Source: an uncultured Planctomycetia bacterium
GTDB taxonomy: Bacteria > Omnitrophota > Gorgyraeia > Tantalellales > Tantalellaceae
Direction: 5' to 3'
Assembly (NCBI GenBank): GCA_964572255.1
Contig: CAZNEE010000001.1
Location: 2,223-66,222, forward strand
DNA: 64,000 nt
Part shown: positions 2,869 to 55,562 of the stretch, piece after piece
How positions within the stretch are numbered: the stretch's first letter is position 1
Layout: the number at the start of each line of letters is the position of its first letter
Notes under the pieces: generated by a model
Database searches by the model: none
Told to the model about the DNA's origin: nothing
The model's input: only the letters and a program-made list of their open reading frames with translations
Made by a program: the position numbers and the translations under genes

Positions 2869-2914
2869 TTTAAACGTTAGTAAAGTTAGTAGTTTTTACT
2901 AAAGTTTTTGAAAC

Positions 2915-3060
2915 AATAGTAAACCATTCGCAAGGATGGGGCACAAAGCCAGAGGGGCCGAAACAGGCTAAGTGGAGGCCAGCCAGCTGCCGATATAGCT
3001 AATCGTTAAAGCGCATGGCAGAGTGTTTTGTGAACCCAACCTTCAATGGTTGGGTTTTTT
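2915..3060 (+). promoter_or_regulatory. Structured 5' leader RNA; candidate c-di-GMP-I (GEMM-like) riboswitch aptamer plus intrinsic terminator expression platform
   Basis: 'AAACCAUUCGCAAGGAUGGGGCACAAAGCC' closely matches my recollection of the Vibrio cholerae Vc2 GEMM P-hairpin/junction ('AAACCAUUCGAAAGAGUGGGACGCAAAGCC'); GNRA hairpin CCAUUC-GCAA-GGAUGG; paralogous copy at 55373..55512(-) with compensatory changes; ends in hairpin AACCCAACC-ttcaa-TGGTTGGGT + U6 (3033-3060). Confidence 0.55.
3033..3060 (+). terminator. Intrinsic terminator (riboswitch expression platform)
   Basis: 9-bp GC-containing stem (ACCCAACC/GGTTGGGT) with 5-nt loop followed by TTTTTT. Confidence 0.6.
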
Positions 3061-6423: not shown

Positions 6424-7042
6424 GACCGTAAAAGCGATATTATTAGATCTGGGAAATGTTATTATCAAGCTGAATCCTTCGGCATTAGAGGAAGGATACT
6501 CTCATTATGGCGATGCAGGCGGCGGCAGGATGACCGAGTTCATAATGAAGGAAGACTCGGAAATATTAAGCGGATATATGGAGGGCAAACTTACATCTTC
6601 GCAATTTTACAAGAAAGTAAGCCGCCTTTTCAATATGGATATTTCATTTGATGATTTTTATCGTGTATGGAATGGCATGTTCCTGCCGTACCCAGAGATG
6701 GAAAACCTCATAAGACTTACCAGGGAAAAATATCCTGAGGTAAAACTTATTCTCGTTTCCAACACTAATGAAGCGCATTATGATTTTATAAGGCAAAATT
6801 ATAAGATCCTTGATCTTTTAGACGAATGTGTCGTTTCGCATGAGTTTGGGAAGCAGAAACCTGATAACTCTATTTACAATGAAGCCTTGCGGATATCGGG
6901 AACATTGCCGAAAGAGACGTTTTACACCGATGACCGGCTTGATCTCATCGACGCCGCCAGGGCCATGGGGATACGCGCTTTTCAGTTTACCGGCCATGAG
7001 GAATTTCAGGAAAAGCTAGAAAAATTCGGGTTAATATTGTGA
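6416..7042 (+). CDS. HAD-superfamily hydrolase (subfamily IA-like)
   Basis: N-terminal '[10 protein letters not shown]' (motif I-like), 'LVSNTN' motif II-like; overlaps nudix stop by 8 nt. Confidence 0.55.
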
Positions 7043-7049
7043 GGTATAA

Positions 7050-7946
7050 TTGAGAAGATCCGGATTTATTGCCATATCAGGCCAGCCGAATGTCGGCAAA
7101 TCAACTATGCTGAACGGCTTTTTAAAAGAAAAGCTTGCGATAATCAGCGAACGCCCCGAAACTACCCGTGACAATATACGGGGGATCCTTACCGATAAAG
7201 AATGCCAGATAATTTTTGTTGATACCCCGGGGATACATAAACCTCACGATCTATTAGGCAAACTCATGCTCTCGCGCGCTCAGTCCTCACTGATGGAATC
7301 AGATATAGTGATCTTTGTGACCGAAAAGAGACTTGCTTTAAACGAAAATGACAGAAATATCATAGAACGCCTCCCGAGACCGGAGGAGGATAAAAAAGTC
7401 ATTCTTGTGATCAATAAAGTTGATAAGGTAAAAGATAAAAAGTTATTACTCCCCATTATCGAAGAGGCGGGTAAACTTTATCCATTTAATGAGATAATAC
7501 CGATCTGTGCTTTGGATCAGTCCGATATCGAAAAACTTCTGATAATAATAAAATCTTACCTTCCCGAAGGGCCTTTATTTTACCCGGAAGAGCAGCTTAC
7601 GGATAAAAGCGAACACTTTATAATCCAGGAACTTATACGCGAGAAGACGCTGGTATTTACATATGAGGAAGTGCCTCATTCAGTAGCTGTTGTTGTGGAT
7701 AATATCGAGCGGGATGAAGATAAAGGCGGTTTGAATATCCAGGCCACGATTTATGTTGAACGCACCTCGCAAAAGTCCATTATTATCGGGAAAAAAGGCG
7801 AAATGATCAAAAGAATCGGAAAAGAAGCCAGAAGTGATATAGAAAAATTTCTGGGGGAACATATTTATTTGGACCTTTGGGTCAAGGTAAAAAAGAAGTG
7901 GAAAAAGGATCCCGGCGCCCTTGAGGAACTGGGATATACTGATTAA
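7050..7946 (+). CDS. era: GTPase Era
   Basis: G1 'GQPNVGKST', G3 'DTPGIH', G4 'NKVDK', C-terminal KH domain 'IIGKKGEMIKRIG'; TTG start. Confidence 0.9.
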   Translation: MRRSGFIAISGQPNVGKSTMLNGFLKEKLAIISERPETTRDNIRGILTDKECQIIFVDTPGIHKPHDLLGKLMLSRAQSSLMESDIVIFVTEKRLALNENDRNIIERLPRPEEDKKVILVINKVDKVKDKKLLLPIIEEAGKLYPFNEIIPICALDQSDIEKLLIIIKSYLPEGPLFYPEEQLTDKSEHFIIQELIREKTLVFTYEEVPHSVAVVVDNIERDEDKGGLNIQATIYVERTSQKSIIIGKKGEMIKRIGKEARSDIEKFLGEHIYLDLWVKVKKKWKKDPGALEELGYTD

Positions 7947-7990
7947 TAAGTTAAGATAGCGCTAAAAGCTGTGCTGACTTTGCATTTATA

Positions 7991-8064
7991 AGAGTGTAAT
8001 ATGTTTCCGTACAGGGAGGATCCACACTGGGCGGAGGGGCCCTGGTAGGAAATATATTACACTC
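7991..8064 (-). repeat. Copy A of dispersed GC-rich palindromic intergenic repeat (inverted orientation relative to copies B/C)
   Basis: Core CCAGGGCCCCTCCGCCC(A/G)GTGTGGATCCTCCCTG near-identical to 39646..39722 and 42855..42934; flanked by imperfect terminal inverted repeats; embedded in a longer palindrome 7971..8089. Confidence 0.7.
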
Positions 8065-8183
8065 ATGGGAGGATATAAAGTCAGCAGTACATTTTTATGA
8101 TATTTAACCGAAAAAAGTATTGATTTTACCGTATTAAGCGTATAATATTAGTTGTCAATTTAATATATAGTATAGGGAACAGG

Positions 8184-27344: not shown

Positions 27345-27432
27345 GCCGGAGTGGTGAAATTGGCAGACGCGCTGGACTCAAAATCCAGTGGGGTATCCCC
27401 CCGTGTGGGTTCGACTCCCACCTCCGGCACCA
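27345..27432 (+). tRNA. tRNA-Leu (anticodon CAA), class II with long variable arm, CCA encoded
   Basis: Acceptor GCCGGAG/CTCCGGC, anticodon loop CU-CAA-AA, long extra arm, T-loop GGTTCGACTCC. Confidence 0.85.
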
Positions 27433-27439
27433 CTTGAGT

Positions 27440-27515
27440 GGGGCTGTAGCTCAGCTGGAAGAGCGCGTGCATGGCATGCATGAGGTCAGGGGTTCGATCC
27501 CCCTCAGCTCCACCA
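27440..27515 (+). tRNA. tRNA-Ala (anticodon GGC), CCA encoded
   Basis: G3:U70 identity pair in acceptor stem, anticodon loop AU-GGC-AU, T-loop GGTTCGATCCC; followed by T-run. Confidence 0.85.
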
Positions 27516-39248: not shown

Positions 39249-39515
39249 TTACTTTTTGATCTTACTCAGCTGAGTTTTCAGCCTGGATATCCTGCGGGAA
39301 GCATTTTCTTTCTTGATAACATTACTTTTAGCGGCTTTATCCAGTTTGGATTCAAGCTGCCTCAGTAAAGCGTTTGCTTCGTCCGGCTTCTGATCACTTA
39401 TCAGTGCTCTTGATCTCTTGGTAAGAGTTCGGATCTCTGAAATAACTGATTTATTTCTTGAATGTTTTTTCTTGTCCTGTCTTAATCTTTTGTATGCTGA
39501 TTTCTTTACCGGCAT
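39249..39515 (-). CDS. rpsT: 30S ribosomal protein S20
   Basis: 'MPVKKSAYKRLRQDKKKHSRNKS...' typical S20. Confidence 0.9.
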   Translation of the reverse strand: MPVKKSAYKRLRQDKKKHSRNKSVISEIRTLTKRSRALISDQKPDEANALLRQLESKLDKAAKSNVIKKENASRRISRLKTQLSKIKK

Positions 39516-39645
39516 TACTTTCTCTCCTTAAATGTTTACTGTAACTAAATTTAGGAGCATAATTTAACACAGCTGGGCGTTGTTGTCAATGTTTTTATGA
39601 AACTATGGATATCAGGTATTATGCTGGTTTTGTTTGTAAACGTAT

Positions 39646-39722
39646 AAGAGTGCAGTATATTTCCTGCCAGGGCCCCTCCGCCCGGTGTGGATCCTCCCTG
39701 TACGGAAACATACTGCACTCTT
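39646..39722 (+). repeat. Copy B of dispersed GC-rich palindromic intergenic repeat
   Basis: AAGAGTGCAGTATATTTCC-TGCCAGGGCCCCTCCGCCCGGTGTGGATCCTCCCTGTAC-GGAAACATACTGCACTCTT; terminal inverted repeats; between divergent rpsT and murJ. Confidence 0.7.
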
Positions 39723-39808
39723 TGTCATATAAACAAAACAAGCATAACCCTTGATATACACTATTGCTAGCTTCACGTAATAATGATATTATATAGGCTA
39801 TAAATAAT

Positions 39809-41392
39809 ATGTCCACTAACCGTAAACTCATAAAATCTACCGGAATAATAAGTTCCGCGACCATTGCCAGCCGTGTCCTTGGTTTTATCCGGGATATCCT
39901 GATCGCTAAATGGTTCGGGACAGGGATATTTGCCCAGGCTTTTGTAGTGGCTTTTCGTCTGCCCAATATGCTCAGGGATATGGTCGGGGAAGGGGCCACC
40001 GATGCGGCGATCGTTCCTATCTTAAGTGAATACCAGCATACACGTACGCGTGAAGAATATTGGGAAGTCGCCCGTATCATACTTAACCTTTTACTTTCAG
40101 TGCTTATAATAGTATCTGTCCTGGGAGTGGTTTTTGCGCCCGTTTTAGTAAAAGTTATTGCCCCCGGATTCTTGAAAGATCCCGAAAAGTTCAGAATAAC
40201 CGTTACTTTAACACGATGGCTTTTCCCTTACATATTATTCCTTGGCATCGTTGCCTACAGTAAAGGCGTTCTGAATTCATTTCATTATTTTACTACACCC
40301 GCTTTCGCGCCCGTTGTGCTCAATGTTACCATGATACTTTCTCTTTTAATATTATGCCCCATAATCGGGATAAGAGGCCTTGTTGCAGGCGTGCTTTCAG
40401 GAGGCATCTTTGAACTTCTTCTTCAGATGCCTCAATTAAAAAAGAAGGGGTTCACATTCGGCAGGGGATTCAAGATCTTTCATCCCATTGCTTCCAGAAT
40501 AGGAAAACTCCTTCTGCCCAGGGCTATCGGAACCGCGGTATATCAGCTTAGCGTTCTTATTGATACGATCTTGGCGTCGCTTGCATGGATAGTCGGTGGA
40601 GGCGGAGTCGCGGCGCTGTATTATTCCAACAGGCTCGTGCAGCTGCCTTTGGCGGTTTTTGGGATAGCCCTTGCTACGGCGGCCCTTCCGAGGATGAGTA
40701 AAGAAGTAGCTTCGAATAATTTGGATAAACTTAAAGAAACGGTTTCTTTTTCCCTCAGAACGATTTTTACTGTTATGATACCAGCGTCCGTAGGGCTTAT
40801 AGTCCTTGCGGAACCTATAGTGAGGATACTTTTTCAAAGAGGAGTATTTACAAGCTATTCCACATCGATAACATCGAGCGCGCTTTTCTTTTACAGTTTC
40901 GGACTTTTCGCATATGCGGGGATAAAGATATTGGTGAGCACGTATTATTCCATGGGAGACACCCGCACGCCGGTAAAGACGGCATCAATATCTTTGGCGG
41001 TAAATTTGATCTTAAACCTGATATTAATGTGGCCTTTGAAAATAGGAGGACTCGCCCTGGCTACTTCAATTGCAGCTACGACGAATTTTATCATGCTTTA
41101 TAAAAGGTTGACCGTGAAGATAGGGGATATAGATACAGAGAGGATCATCTCGTCCGTTAAAAAAATATGCCTATCCAGCGGGATCATGGCAATTTTTACG
41201 TACGTATGTTCCATTCTTTTTTTACAGCCGGATAAAGCGTACGGGATAAAGGGCATTATTTCAATATTTGCTATTGTGCTTTTGAGCGCATTAGTTTATC
41301 TTACTGCGGCATATCTTATGCGGGTTGAGGGAATAAGACGGTTATTTATAGAGGTAAACGGGCGCAGGGTATACATAAGAAAAAATGAATAA
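39809..41392 (+). CDS. murJ: Lipid II flippase MurJ (MviN)
   Basis: 'ASRVLGFIRDILIAKWFG' N-terminus, 14-TM MOP-superfamily. Confidence 0.9.
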   Translation: MSTNRKLIKSTGIISSATIASRVLGFIRDILIAKWFGTGIFAQAFVVAFRLPNMLRDMVGEGATDAAIVPILSEYQHTRTREEYWEVARIILNLLLSVLIIVSVLGVVFAPVLVKVIAPGFLKDPEKFRITVTLTRWLFPYILFLGIVAYSKGVLNSFHYFTTPAFAPVVLNVTMILSLLILCPIIGIRGLVAGVLSGGIFELLLQMPQLKKKGFTFGRGFKIFHPIASRIGKLLLPRAIGTAVYQLSVLIDTILASLAWIVGGGGVAALYYSNRLVQLPLAVFGIALATAALPRMSKEVASNNLDKLKETVSFSLRTIFTVMIPASVGLIVLAEPIVRILFQRGVFTSYSTSITSSALFFYSFGLFAYAGIKILVSTYYSMGDTRTPVKTASISLAVNLILNLILMWPLKIGGLALATSIAATTNFIMLYKRLTVKIGDIDTERIISSVKKICLSSGIMAIFTYVCSILFLQPDKAYGIKGIISIFAIVLLSALVYLTAAYLMRVEGIRRLFIEVNGRRVYIRKNE

Positions 41393-42821
41393 AAGAATGC
41401 CGGCTAAAATACATAATAAATTATCATCTAAGATCAAAAAGCTCCCCGGCACACCCGGCGTGTATATGTTCTTGAACGGGAAAGGCCGGATAATATATGT
41501 GGGCAAAGCCCGGGTGCTGAAAAAAAGAGTAATGTCTTATTTCCGTGCCGGACGGGCCGGTGACGCGAGATTGGAACTTTTAAGAGGAGAAATCCGCGAT
41601 ATAAATTTTGTAAGAGCTTCCTCGGAAGCGGAAGCTTTGATCTATGAAGCCGGGCTTATAAAGGATCATCGTCCAAAATATAATATAGAGCTTAAAGATG
41701 ATAAGTCATATCCTTTTCTTAAGTTGACAATGAATGAAGAGTATCCCAGGCTATTCATCACACGCAGAAGGGTGAATGACGGGGCGGTTTACTATGGTCC
41801 GTATACGGATGTGAAGCTGTTGAAGCAAGCGGTGTCTTTTATGAAAAAAGTATTCCCCCTTAGAACATGCAAGAAGTTCCATAAAACAGTATGTTTGGAA
41901 TATCATATTGGACAGTGTCTGGGCCCCTGCGAGGGCAAAACATCTAAACAGGAATATGGAAAAATAGTTAAACAGCTGAAAGCTTTTCTGGAGGGGAGAA
42001 AAGAGGATCTTATTGATTCGCTGAACGGCCAGATGAAGAGGCTTTCAGAAAAAAGAAAATATGAAAAAGCTTTAATAATCAAAAAACGCGTAGAAGCGCT
42101 TACCGCTGTCCAGCAGATGCATGATCGGGCTCAATATCCGATGTTCGGTGAACTTGATGAACTAAGGAACGCGCTTGGTTTAAAAAAAATCCCGGCAGTT
42201 ATAGAGTGTTTTGATATATCAAATATCGGAGGCAAGGAAGCAGTGGGATCTATGGTAAGATTTGTGGACGGCAGGCCCGATAAAGGGAATTACAGAAAAT
42301 TCAGGATAAGAACTGTCGGGAGGATTGATGATTACTCCATGATACGTGAAGTTGTAAGAAGACGATATTCGCGTCTCTTAGGAGAGCGGGAAAAACTTCC
42401 GGATCTGGTCTTAATTGATGGCGGAAAAGGCCATCTTATGGTAGCAAAAGATGAATTGGCCGCTTTAGGGGTGGAAAGAACAGCGCTCGCGAGCATAGCG
42501 AAAGAGCACGATCACTTATATACTTTAAAGCGACCGCATCCGATCCGTCTCTCACCCGGGTCCAGATTGCTGCTTTTGATCCAACGCGTCAGGGACGAAG
42601 CGCATAGGTTCGCTATAGAATTCCATAGATCTCTTAGAATGAGAGCCAAGTTTTATACCGAGCTCAGGGATATTAAAGGCATAGGGCCTGTTAAAGAAGA
42701 TCTGCTTTTGGAGAAATTTAAAAGTATCGAAAGAATAAAGAAACTGTCCCTTAAAGATCTGATCGAAGCCGGGATCGATATAAAAACATCCAAGGCTATC
42801 ATTGAATATTTTAAAAAGTAA
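41385..42821 (+). CDS. uvrC: Excinuclease ABC subunit C (short form)
   Basis: GIY-YIG 'GVYMFLNGKGRIIYVGKA', UVR domain, RNaseH-like endonuclease, C-terminal (HhH)2. Confidence 0.85.
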   Translation: MNKRMPAKIHNKLSSKIKKLPGTPGVYMFLNGKGRIIYVGKARVLKKRVMSYFRAGRAGDARLELLRGEIRDINFVRASSEAEALIYEAGLIKDHRPKYNIELKDDKSYPFLKLTMNEEYPRLFITRRRVNDGAVYYGPYTDVKLLKQAVSFMKKVFPLRTCKKFHKTVCLEYHIGQCLGPCEGKTSKQEYGKIVKQLKAFLEGRKEDLIDSLNGQMKRLSEKRKYEKALIIKKRVEALTAVQQMHDRAQYPMFGELDELRNALGLKKIPAVIECFDISNIGGKEAVGSMVRFVDGRPDKGNYRKFRIRTVGRIDDYSMIREVVRRRYSRLLGEREKLPDLVLIDGGKGHLMVAKDELAALGVERTALASIAKEHDHLYTLKRPHPIRLSPGSRLLLLIQRVRDEAHRFAIEFHRSLRMRAKFYTELRDIKGIGPVKEDLLLEKFKSIERIKKLSLKDLIEAGIDIKTSKAIIEYFKK

Positions 42822-42854
42822 GTCACAAAAAATCATGCTGACGTCGCATTTATT

Positions 42855-42934
42855 AAAAGTACAGTATATTTCCTACCAGGGCCCCTCCGCCCGGTGTGGA
42901 TCCTCCCTGTACGGAAACATACTGCACTTTTAAA
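42855..42934 (+). repeat. Copy C of dispersed GC-rich palindromic intergenic repeat
   Basis: Core identical to copy B except flanks; lies between uvrC stop and prfB RBS. Confidence 0.7.
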
Positions 42935-43006
42935 AGCAGGGTCGGCCTGTGTTCTGTGACATGCGACTTTTTATATGTTATAATGCAAAACCGGAGGTAA
43001 AACGAG

Positions 43007-44105
43007 ATGATTGAAGAGCTTATAGAGAATTTAAAGATACTTGATGCTAAGCTGGAAGAACTCAGGGGGTATCTTTGACCTTGATAAAAATCGTAAAGAA
43101 ATAACCGAGTTAGAGAGAGAGCTGAACGACCCGGACATTTGGCGCAATCAGGAAAAAGCTGATAAGCTTTCCCGTAGGCTTCGAACGGTAAGGGCTCTTG
43201 TAGGGCCTTATAACGATATCGAACAGAAGTATGAAGCTGTTAAGGAATTATCCGAAATAGTGGAAGCCGAAGATGCCGAATCCATCAATAGTTTGCTTGA
43301 TGAAATAAAAGACCTTCGAGAGGATATCGACAAACTTGAGTTTAAAAGTCTTCTTGGAGATGAAGCTGATGGATGTAATGCGATAGTAAGCATCAATTCC
43401 GGAGCGGGCGGCACCGAATCATGTGATTGGGCTTCCATGCTCTTTCGTATGTATACCAGATGGGCTGAAGCGCATGGCCATAAGTTTGAAGTATTAGATC
43501 AGCTTGCAGGGGATGAAGCCGGCATAAAAAGCGTTACCTTTATTATACAAGGCGATTTTGCTTATGGTTATTTGAAAGCAGAATCAGGAGTTCATCGTTT
43601 GGTAAGGATCTCTCCTTTTGATGCCAACAAGCGAAGGCATACATCGTTTGCTTCGGTCGATGTTATCCCGGAATTAAGCGGGGATATAAAGGTTGATATT
43701 AAAGATGCTGATCTGAGAGTGGATACGTACCGGGCTTCCGGAGCAGGCGGACAACATGTTAATGTTACGGATTCGGCCGTGCGTATAACACATCTGCCTA
43801 CCGGCATAGTCGTGCAGTGCCAGAAAGAGAGATCGCAGCATAAAAACAAAGCGGCAGCCATGAAAGTCCTTAAGGCGCGGCTTTATGAAAAAATGAAGCG
43901 TGAACAGGAAGAAAAAACTGTAAGAGCGTATGAAGATAAAAAGAAGATAGAATGGGGAAGCCAAATAAGGTCTTACGTACTGCATCCGTATAAGATGGTC
44001 AAGGACCATAGAACAGAAGTACAGACCTCAAATGCGGAAAAGATATTAGACGGTGATCTCGACAGATTTATTGAAGAATTTTTAAAAATGAAGGCTAAAA
44101 AATAA
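43007..44105 (+). CDS. prfB: Peptide chain release factor 2 with programmed +1 ribosomal frameshift (join 43007..43075, 43077..44105)
   Basis: ORF1 '[23 protein letters not shown]' ends at canonical site AGGGGG-TAT-CTT-TGA-C (43064-43079); +1 frame continues 'DLDKNRKEI...' to 'SPF', 'GQH' motifs and stop at 44105. Confidence 0.9.
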
Positions 44106-55372: not shown

Positions 55373-55512
55373 AAAAAAACCCAACCATTGAAAGGTTGGG
55401 TCACAAAGATCCTCTTACACTTTTTACGATAGTGCAAATCGGCAACCGGCTGGGTCTCGCTTAATCTGCTAAACCCCCTGTGGTTTTGTGCCCCATTCTT
55501 GCAAATGGTTTA
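55373..55512 (-). promoter_or_regulatory. Paralogous structured leader RNA (candidate c-di-GMP-I/GEMM-like riboswitch + terminator), copy 2
   Basis: Reverse complement reads AAACCAUUUGCAAGAAUGGGGCACAAAACC...GCCGAU...ACCCAACCUUUCAAUGGUUGGGUUUUU; collinear with 2915..3060. Confidence 0.55.
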
Positions 55513-55562
55513 CTATTAGTATTGGTAAAAAGAGCATAATTGCTTACTTTACTATCTCTTAA

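Follow-up and report, generated by a model that had tools for sequence, protein, structure and literature searches.

What is the short sequence that recurs three times, each time at the heart of a long palindrome, in a 64-kb stretch of an uncultured bacterial genome? The stretch (64,000 nt of contig CAZNEE010000001.1, assembly GCA_964572255.1; hereafter the window) comes from a genome that carries a Planctomycetia label and is placed by GTDB in the Omnitrophota. We consider it probable that the three repeats, copies A, B and C, are copies of a previously undescribed family of non-coding, non-autonomous mobile DNA palindromes. The 34-nt core CCAGGGCCCCTCCGCCCGGTGTGGATCCTCCCTG has three matches in the window at up to three mismatches and none in 100 shuffles. 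A repeat search returned the same three copies as 78-nt units, with B and C 95% identical and A inverted (90-92% complementary), and no other genuine dispersed repeat in the 64 kb. A covariance model run with filters off found no further or degenerate copy there. Each copy is the centre of a 115-130-nt hairpin, and on both strands the hairpins fold far better than shuffled sequence (z-scores of -4 to -9 as RNA, and of -5.6 to -8.3 as DNA for copies A and B). Even among these three copies, substitutions in the stem come in pairs: A has TGTAATAT/ATATTACA where B has TGCAGTAT/ATACTGCA, and C has AAAAG/CTTTT where B has AAGAG/CTCTT.

These results bear out most of what the initial annotation had reported from the window: three copies, a single substitution in the inverted core of copy A, inverted arms around the core (19 nt long, with one A.C mismatch), a longer palindrome enclosing each copy, and placement in the spacers era|mgtE, rpsT|murJ (divergent) and uvrC|prfB (Table 1). 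Its remark that the element always sits just upstream of a gene start merely follows from location in spacers. Its statement that the element never lies in coding sequence holds for the window and fails for the family, which has in-frame copies in genes.

The family extends well beyond this locus. An exact 22-nt core pattern (21 fixed positions, the 22nd being N), scanned over one genome per species, matched more than 111 stretches, with about 30 assemblies among the matches listed, so the three copies are no local peculiarity. Host labels among the matches listed are mostly Candidatus Omnitrophota, with some Planctomycetia, a few Deltaproteobacteria and one complete chromosome assigned to Bdellovibrionota. 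One of the Planctomycetia-labelled genomes has gene order in common with an Omnitrophota-labelled genome, and all named protein matches of the window MurJ are Omnitrophota. The Mfd protein encoded beside the Bdellovibrionota-labelled copy (L027) has no relative above 45% identity, and its named matches come from Desulfobacterales, Myxococcota and similar groups, never from Omnitrophota, so the element is present in at least two phyla. Copy number can be high: sampled pieces of one metagenome-assembled genome (MAG), JBDRFA01, hold at least 44 copies. The GC content of the host DNA around copies ranges from 36 to 68%, and the core is constant throughout. In the literature on Omnitrophota (Omnitrophica) we found no description of palindromic or repeat content.

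What unites these copies is a fixed apex on a free stem. In a structural alignment of 73 copies with less than 85% mutual identity, on which the hairpin of copy B was imposed, the apex GGGCCCCTCCGCCCGGTGTGGATCCTCCC is all but constant. The apical 5-bp helix UCCGC/GUGGA (with one G.U pair), the CCGGU loop and the CCCC/UCCU internal loop are invariant, and the three closing G-C pairs (GGG/CCC) are nearly so (70, 72 and 73 of the 73 copies), which gives a 29-nt asymmetric tip module, GGG-CCCC-TCCGC-CCGGT-GTGGA-TCCT-CCC. The stem, 20-35 bp long, changes completely in sequence and keeps its pairing. Standard pairs fill 86% of its cells, and sliding the partner by 1-3 columns lowers this share to 39-53%; double changes are seen at 21 of 29 pairs; compensatory cells number 601, against 212 +/- 13 in shuffles; and all four Watson-Crick pairs occur at almost every stem position. 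The unbiased view of the apex comes from about 18 secondary copies, which lie near a pattern-selected copy and were themselves not chosen by the search pattern. These differ from the core by 1-2 nt (CCGGC for CCGGT, GGAGGC for GGATCC, CCTTTG for CCTCCG) and have unrelated stems.

Three sub-families can be distinguished in the sequences. Sub-family 1, the type found in the window, has a symmetric TAC/TAC internal loop adjoining the apex; sub-family 2 is GC-rich, its ends (GGCGGGNCCTGYC ... GYCACCCGCC) are conserved and its distal loop is asymmetric; and sub-family 3, from Deltaproteobacteria-labelled MAGs, has perfect stems that directly abut the core. The repeat unit of JBDRFA01 is a palindrome of about 215 nt with outer inverted repeats of its own. 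Palindrome length has a median of 92 nt (10th-90th percentile, 77-156 nt), and elements overall span about 77-215 nt. The termini of the arms are shared only within one genome or sub-family and are entirely different between lineages. Amelioration of the stems to host GC was considered and not adopted, the correlation between stem GC and host GC being weak (r = 0.33).

Individual copies are gained and lost; they decay, are truncated and are duplicated, in either orientation and in any type of spacer. Six genomes whose MurJ is 70-74% identical to that of the window (L117-L122) keep the order holA-rpsT-murJ-uvrC, with prfB-secA directly next in five of them, and none has the element at any point in 9.5 kb. 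Five of them have rpsT|murJ spacers of 113-214 nt, and the sixth has a gene inserted there; the window spacer, with copy B, measures 293 nt. The uvrC|prfB spacer measures about 77-155 nt in the five directly adjacent cases, against 185 nt (stop to prfB ATG) in the window; the site of copy C is empty in L087 and L117-L121, and L122 has another gene between uvrC and prfB. Where era and mgtE adjoin in two metagenome contigs (L125/L126), the spacer is about 47 nt, against 237 nt in the window including copy A. These copy-free orthologous spacers indicate that copies A, B and C are lineage-specific insertions of about 120-130 nt each. Within the window species, copies B and C look fixed: identical MurJ proteins occur on nine contigs, and among the five examined copy B is present in all four that reach rpsT|murJ and copy C in all three that reach uvrC|prfB. 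Separate assemblies of this species, built from several samples, contain the window copies too; the species occurs in ERZ27256770, 3300018080 and SRR14699969.

The conserved block also accepts other insertions, a PhdYeFM/ParE toxin-antitoxin pair having entered between murJ and uvrC (L119, 5653-6178) and an ATPase_2/AAA_14 gene between rpsT and murJ (L117). In L117 a different long palindrome (6993-7149) fills the uvrC|prfB spacer.

Spacers outside these six genomes also differ in their copies. In L087 the rpsT|murJ spacer contains two copies, one full and one truncated, which point the other way from copy B and whose outer arms differ; the uvrC|prfB spacer of L087 has none. Another syntenic spacer has two copies in L032, one in L110 in opposite orientation, and only a stemless remnant, CCCGGAGCCCCTCCCAGCCGGTATGCAT, in L001. 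Truncated and tandem copies occur in L014, L098, L074, L087, L008 and L032, with microhomology junctions among the truncated ones. The truncated copies of L014 and L098 were also considered as marks of a specific cleavage point within the core; this was rejected, as comparison with L095 gives a CCCCT microhomology junction and points to illegitimate recombination. By crude gene calls, copies show no orientation preference relative to flanking genes (26 are co-oriented with both neighbours, 24 are anti-oriented, 17 have divergent neighbours and 8 have convergent ones). In L087 and L032 the copies are placed between predicted promoters, or between a predicted terminator and the promoter that follows it. 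The distribution is patchy, as not one copy was found across 80 loci with era, 478 kb in all.

In GC-rich lineages, copies also lie within genes, where they appear to be read through as 30-45 extra residues. Pfam domains flank the insert on both sides in a CCA-adding/poly(A) polymerase-type enzyme (L010), in RimO (L039) and in CobQ (L053). Two further in-gene copies, in a cytochrome c assembly protein (L034) and in YfhO (L041), are probable, and four candidates whose domain support is absent or ambiguous (L075, L012, L045 and L096) were left uncounted. Relative to solved structures, RimO has about 43 extra residues in the UPF0004/radical-SAM linker, and the CCA enzyme has about 28 between its RNA-binding and HD domains. 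That enzyme has 515 aa, against 473-485 aa in the majority of listed orthologues. In an alignment with 15 orthologues, its additional residues coincide exactly with the palindrome GCCGCCCTG...CAGGGCGGC (105 nt, 35 codons), which lies in a variable loop; the palindrome is absent from all 15, three of which have shorter, unrelated extras in that loop. The predicted translation through the copy includes ...GPLAGPSARCGSSRSL.... We considered that the arms might be an inverted duplication of the local target and rejected this, as the arms in L010 are GC-rich and foreign to the AT-rich gene, and the whole 105-nt palindrome is extra.

The core contains no stop codon in any of its six frames. In genes it reads as GPSARCGS, APPPGVDP or PLRPVWIL (three frames) and, from the other strand, as EDPHRAEG. 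Different frames are used, so what is conserved is the nucleotide sequence and not a peptide. Four of the five in-gene copies have their C-rich strand as the sense strand, as would be expected if the better-folding G-rich RNA were harmful within an mRNA, small as these numbers are. Among Omnitrophota orthologues of the CCA enzyme, three (P0006, P0101 and P0115; alignment columns 109-128 and 173-196) have unrelated in-frame extras, two with a 20-residue basic insert at the same position and one with TRLPALSK three times in tandem. These extras may be further short insertion elements.

The stems also bear on which strand folds. In 52 cleanly aligned copies, 47 transition mismatches would pair as G.U or G.T if the G-rich strand folds, and 17 if the C-rich strand does; 24 copies lean toward the G-rich strand and 4 the opposite way, and a cruder count gives 149 against 71. 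The conserved internal loops are purine-rich on the G-rich strand (GUA/GUA, GA/GAA and AGGA/GGGG). In the invariant apical helix, by contrast, the wobble is found on the C-rich strand and becomes an A.C mismatch on the G-rich one. From the 47:17 asymmetry, it seems that folding as a single strand is important, with the G-rich strand the likelier to be active.

Could that folded strand be an RNA? The initial annotation had offered a small structured RNA family as one of its two readings. The repeats would then be a structured RNA family or a cis-acting RNA module, with the G-rich strand functional, an invariant apex that binds a conserved protein, a role in mRNA stability, processing or localisation, and stems maintained through selection on RNA folding. 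We regard this as unlikely, although several observations favour it: covariation is very strong along a long helix whose apex does not vary, there is the mismatch excess just described, the loops that are purine-rich on the G-rich strand could pair there as tandem G.A, and in at least 8 genomes sub-family 2 retains an asymmetric UGA/GCAGGA loop in its distal part. The G-rich strand also lies in the era sense in the era-downstream copies of three genomes, and some copies sit between co-directional, probably co-transcribed genes. However, no transcript is expected at the places occupied by copy B and by the L087 and L032 copies, which are between divergent promoters or between terminator and promoter, and sense and antisense copies are nearly equal in number (26 against 24). 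The variable stems leave no space for a conserved promoter of the element's own, and the apical-stem wobble falls on the strand opposite to that favoured by the other mismatches. Copies are absent in close relatives, decayed in others, and found within unrelated enzymes in three frames. No Rfam family matches: at gathering thresholds nothing in Rfam (15) overlaps the copies in the window, and at E values up to 10 copy B and a sub-family-2 copy gave only weak miRNA-like or sRNA-like hairpin matches, far below threshold. Covariation and strand asymmetry thus speak for the RNA reading of the initial annotation, and untranscribed spacers, unbiased orientation, patchiness and the Rfam result leave it disfavoured.

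We find it improbable to a marked degree that the palindrome is a DNA-level host site, presenting its asymmetric 29-bp core to a conserved DNA-binding protein of nucleoid organisation, recombination, methylation or replication. Speaking for it are the copies in untranscribed spacers, the use of both orientations and a core that stays constant across hosts of 36-68% GC. The core does contain GGATCC/GATC and CCGG, as well as a 7/9 match to the reverse complement of a DnaA box, for which the estimated chance of about 0.06 is not significant. This sits poorly with an element that is missing from the six relatives of the same gene order and from the 80 era loci, that leaves decayed copies, that enters coding sequence without obvious DNA-site logic and that occurs in a second phylum; moreover, the G.T/A.C asymmetry points to a folded single strand, not to recognition of a duplex. 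That the copies are intrinsic terminators, or ordinary terminator hairpins made alike by chance or by an assembly artefact, is scarcely credible. Copies A and C do follow a stop codon, with a short T-run a few bases past the outer arms, but at least four T follow the hairpin at only 6 of 230 ends (C-rich strand 4/115, G-rich strand 2/115), at or below the 7% background, and copy B lies between divergent genes. Recurrence of the same copies in independent assemblies argues against an artefact, and the expected number of chance matches is zero. A phage or plasmid origin likewise received no support, with 0 matches in IMG/VR contigs, GenBank phages and PLSDB plasmids.

For the mobile palindrome family that we favour, the apex would be the cis-acting part required by a trans-acting enzyme that copies or moves the element. 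Descendants would come only from copies whose apex is intact and whose stem can fold, and such descent would keep the apex constant while the stems drift. Recognition would probably take place on a single-stranded hairpin, most likely that of the G-rich strand, since stem mismatches preferentially stay paired (G.T or G.U) there. Pairing would be restored after mutation either by arm-to-arm correction in the folded state or by selection for foldability. For the host, copies would be mostly neutral passengers, and single copies may affect nearby promoters or mRNAs. A fixed apex with a free stem and free ends is the reverse of the normal miniature inverted-repeat transposable element (MITE), and would imply a mobilising activity that reads the hairpin tip. 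A more specific proposal, speculative and rather doubtful in our own estimate, is that the apex serves for recognition in a novel type of mobile element guided by a hairpin, whose enzyme would read the tip of a single-stranded DNA (or RNA) hairpin and act at the base of a stem of any length and sequence. If true, this would account for free ends with a fixed centre and for spread across phyla, from Omnitrophota to the Bdellovibrionota-labelled genome. Alternatively, the apex may be a protein-binding aptamer that hosts began to use as a portable regulatory module.

Several observations weigh against mobility as we propose it. The copies are accompanied by no linked transposase or other enzyme, their neighbours being ordinary housekeeping genes, so that the mobilising step is purely something that we infer. 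Genes adjoining copies encode epimerases, VWA proteins, ABC ATPases and histidine kinases, and all-against-all clustering of 1067 open reading frames within 2 kb of copies gave no recurrent protein family but ordinary paralogues. In a search limited to copy neighbourhoods, there was no Y1_Tnp gene near any of about 130 copies; the sole Y1_Tnp gene seen (L117 8366-8863, 165 aa, RAYT-like), in a related Omnitrophota genome, sits in a textbook REPtron (L117 8260-8960) with GTAG-type REP hairpins (CGTAGGAGCGGCCTCCAGGCCGCGAAC) on both sides that are unrelated to the core. No target-site duplication is clear, and none is visible at the L010 insertion, the empty sites being too diverged for comparison at the level of bases; TA stands on both sides of copy B and of several copies of the 215-nt JBDRFA form, and could belong to the repeat itself. 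Since 21 of the 29 apex bases had to match the search pattern, the invariance of the apex is partly a matter of ascertainment. The weak tracking of host GC by the stems suits either recent arrival or selection for stable stems. The purine loops of the G-rich strand and the distal loop of sub-family 2 look like protein-binding RNA motifs.

The genes next to some copies raise a further doubt. In three element-rich genomes a copy lies just 3' of era with the G-rich strand in the era sense (L067 2678-2700, where the terminal TAATAC of the element overlaps the era stop codon; L051 6725-6814; and window 7972-8086), and this constant orientation could hint at a site-specific function. It is either coincidence or a preferred target, other era loci being without a copy. 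Era binds the 3' end of 16S rRNA, and a functional link was considered from what may be a loose likeness of the C-rich core to that end; we dropped it because copies are lacking at all 80 era loci, four of which have 65-71% identity. In L051 a short tandem repeat (CTTACTCC / CTTACCA units) occupies 6600-6680, between era and the element.

How does this element compare with known repeats? Judged by its sequence and distribution, it appears to be a small palindromic mobile repeat outside any named family, closest to Rickettsia palindromic elements (RPE), to the enterobacterial repetitive intergenic consensus (ERIC) and to MITEs. RPE insert in frame into unrelated housekeeping genes and add a peptide segment (PMC10969869). 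Like the present element they are palindromes, of about 100-150 bp, with no known transposase, found both in spacers and in frame within genes (here L010, L039 and L053). They differ in that RPE families encode a conserved peptide, whereas here three frames and both orientations are used and conservation is of nucleotides only; the host phylum is another one, and a 29-nt fixed apex is joined here to free stems, the comparison being one of description. ERIC, or intergenic repeat units (IRU), of enterobacteria are also imperfect palindromes (about 127 bp) that cross genera, take either orientation, vary in copy number between species and have a conserved centre; Hulton and co-workers are said to have found in 1991 that the central inverted repeat is the best-conserved part of ERIC. 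However, ERICs lie in transcribed regions and are similar over their whole length, whereas stems here are unrelated between lineages, and some copies lie outside the predicted transcription units and some inside genes.

With classical MITEs the element shares small size, non-coding content, multiple copies, inverted-repeat arms, presence or absence between relatives, possible promoter adjacency and, at some copies, TA flanks; Correia elements, which are MITEs, can also invert (PMC10969869). Yet MITEs have the conserved terminal inverted repeats of a parent insertion sequence (IS) and target-site duplications, whereas in this family it is the centre that stays fixed while the termini vary, and the neighbourhoods of copies contained no parent IS. 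Hairpins of the REP/REPIN-RAYT system are thought to act as single-stranded DNA, and the strand asymmetry described here is as that mechanism predicts. A REP palindrome, however, is 20-40 nt long with a GTAG head; the present element is 3-5 times longer, has no GTAG at its foot, occurs also in coding sequence and, in the copy neighbourhoods searched, does not flank a RAYT gene. We place it outside the named families because it departs both from what defines classical MITEs (conserved termini, a parent IS, a demonstrated target duplication) and from what defines REP/RAYT (size, GTAG, linkage). The initial annotation had called it MITE/REP-like, which is apt in kind (multicopy, with empty sites and decay) and not in detail (conserved centre, no GTAG, no RAYT linkage). 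Yeast mitochondrial GC clusters are likewise GC-rich mobile hairpins in AT-rich DNA, found in spacers and occasionally in coding sequence, with no known mobiliser. They belong to a eukaryotic organelle, are much shorter and share no sequence with the element, and the likeness is one of analogy only.

If this reading is right, the addition of 30-45 residues to housekeeping enzymes would be a second, independent example of RPE-like selfish DNA remodelling proteins, and the mobilising enzyme, once found, could reveal a new mechanism of single-strand transposition or recombination. The more than 100 independent helices under pairing constraint form a natural data set for weighing arm-to-arm correction against selection. 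The Omnitrophota are a large, mainly uncultured phylum, and the element, abundant in some lineages, can be recognised by one exact 22-mer pattern; it breaks contigs and is thus relevant to metagenome assembly.

Within the window, the outer arms deserve separate mention. The motif TGCTGAC..GCATTTAT lies on the + strand to the left of the core in both copy A (7973-7989) and copy C (42837-42853), though their cores oppose. Either the motif has been retained on a different arm in each copy, or the central segment flips between inverted arms. Alongside possible core flipping, we note that equivalent spacers in other genomes are occupied in opposite orientation. Outer complementarity around copy C possibly reaches about 42821-42964 (by eye), into the -35 hexamer of the promoter-like site of prfB.

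Table 1. Positions of the three palindrome copies and adjoining sites in the 64-kb window
Feature	Position	Strand	Details
Copy A, whole palindrome	7972..8086	-	fold extents; covariance-model match 7984-8073 (-), 82.6 bits
Copy A, location			spacer between era stop (7946) and mgtE start (8184)
Copy A, strand			C-rich reference orientation on - strand; G-rich strand in era/mgtE sense
Copy A, core (apex)	8012..8045	-	one apical-loop substitution, CCCAGTG for CCCGGTG
Copy B, whole palindrome	39620..39746	+	fold extents; covariance-model match 39639-39728, 90.7 bits
Copy B, location			between divergent rpsT (39249-39515, -) and murJ (39809-41392, +), between predicted promoters
Promoter-like sites around copy B	39589-39561 (-) and 39764-39792 (+)		predicted
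Copy B, core (apex)	39667..39700	+	CAGGG / CCCC / TCCGC-CCGGT-GTGGA / TCCT / CCCTG
Copy B, inner left arm AAGAGTGCAGTATATTTCC	39646..39664	+	pairs with 39704-39722, one A.C mismatch (G.U on the opposite strand)
Copy B, inner right arm GGAAACATACTGCACTCTT	39704..39722	+	pairs with 39646-39664
Copy C, whole palindrome	42834..42949	+	fold extents; covariance-model match 42848-42937, 87.0 bits
Copy C, location			between uvrC-like gene (stop 42821) and prfB (ATG 43007)
Promoter-like site 3' of copy C	42956-42984		predicted
Copy C, core (apex)	42876..42909	+	identical to reference core

Other features were noted in the window and its relatives. A second repeat family, with TGTCATCCCGAGCGAGGGACAAAACCACAT or GTCATCCC...GGGATGAC, occurs in L030 (reverse complement, about 400-520, three in tandem) and in L032 (4130-4260); in L032 this second repeat takes up the post-tRNA site, at which L001 has the palindromic element. 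Downstream of copy C, prfB has a classic programmed +1 frameshift site, CTCAGGGGGTATCTTTGAC (43061-43079; a Shine-Dalgarno-like AGGGGG, then CUU UGA C), its ATG (43007) and its long open reading frame (43041-44105) being in different frames; the same site is present in L087, L118 and L120. Two c-di-GMP-I riboswitch aptamers lie at 2908-2994 (+) and 55438-55524 (-), scoring 51 and 50 bits and 74% complementary to each other across 96 nt, and the same terminator-like hairpin comes after both (3027-3060 and 55374-55407, 88% complementary); riboswitch and terminator are duplicated in inverted orientation, 52 kb apart. Two adjacent tRNA genes match the Rfam tRNA family at 27345-27429 and 27440-27512 (+), with 55.6 and 61.3 bits.

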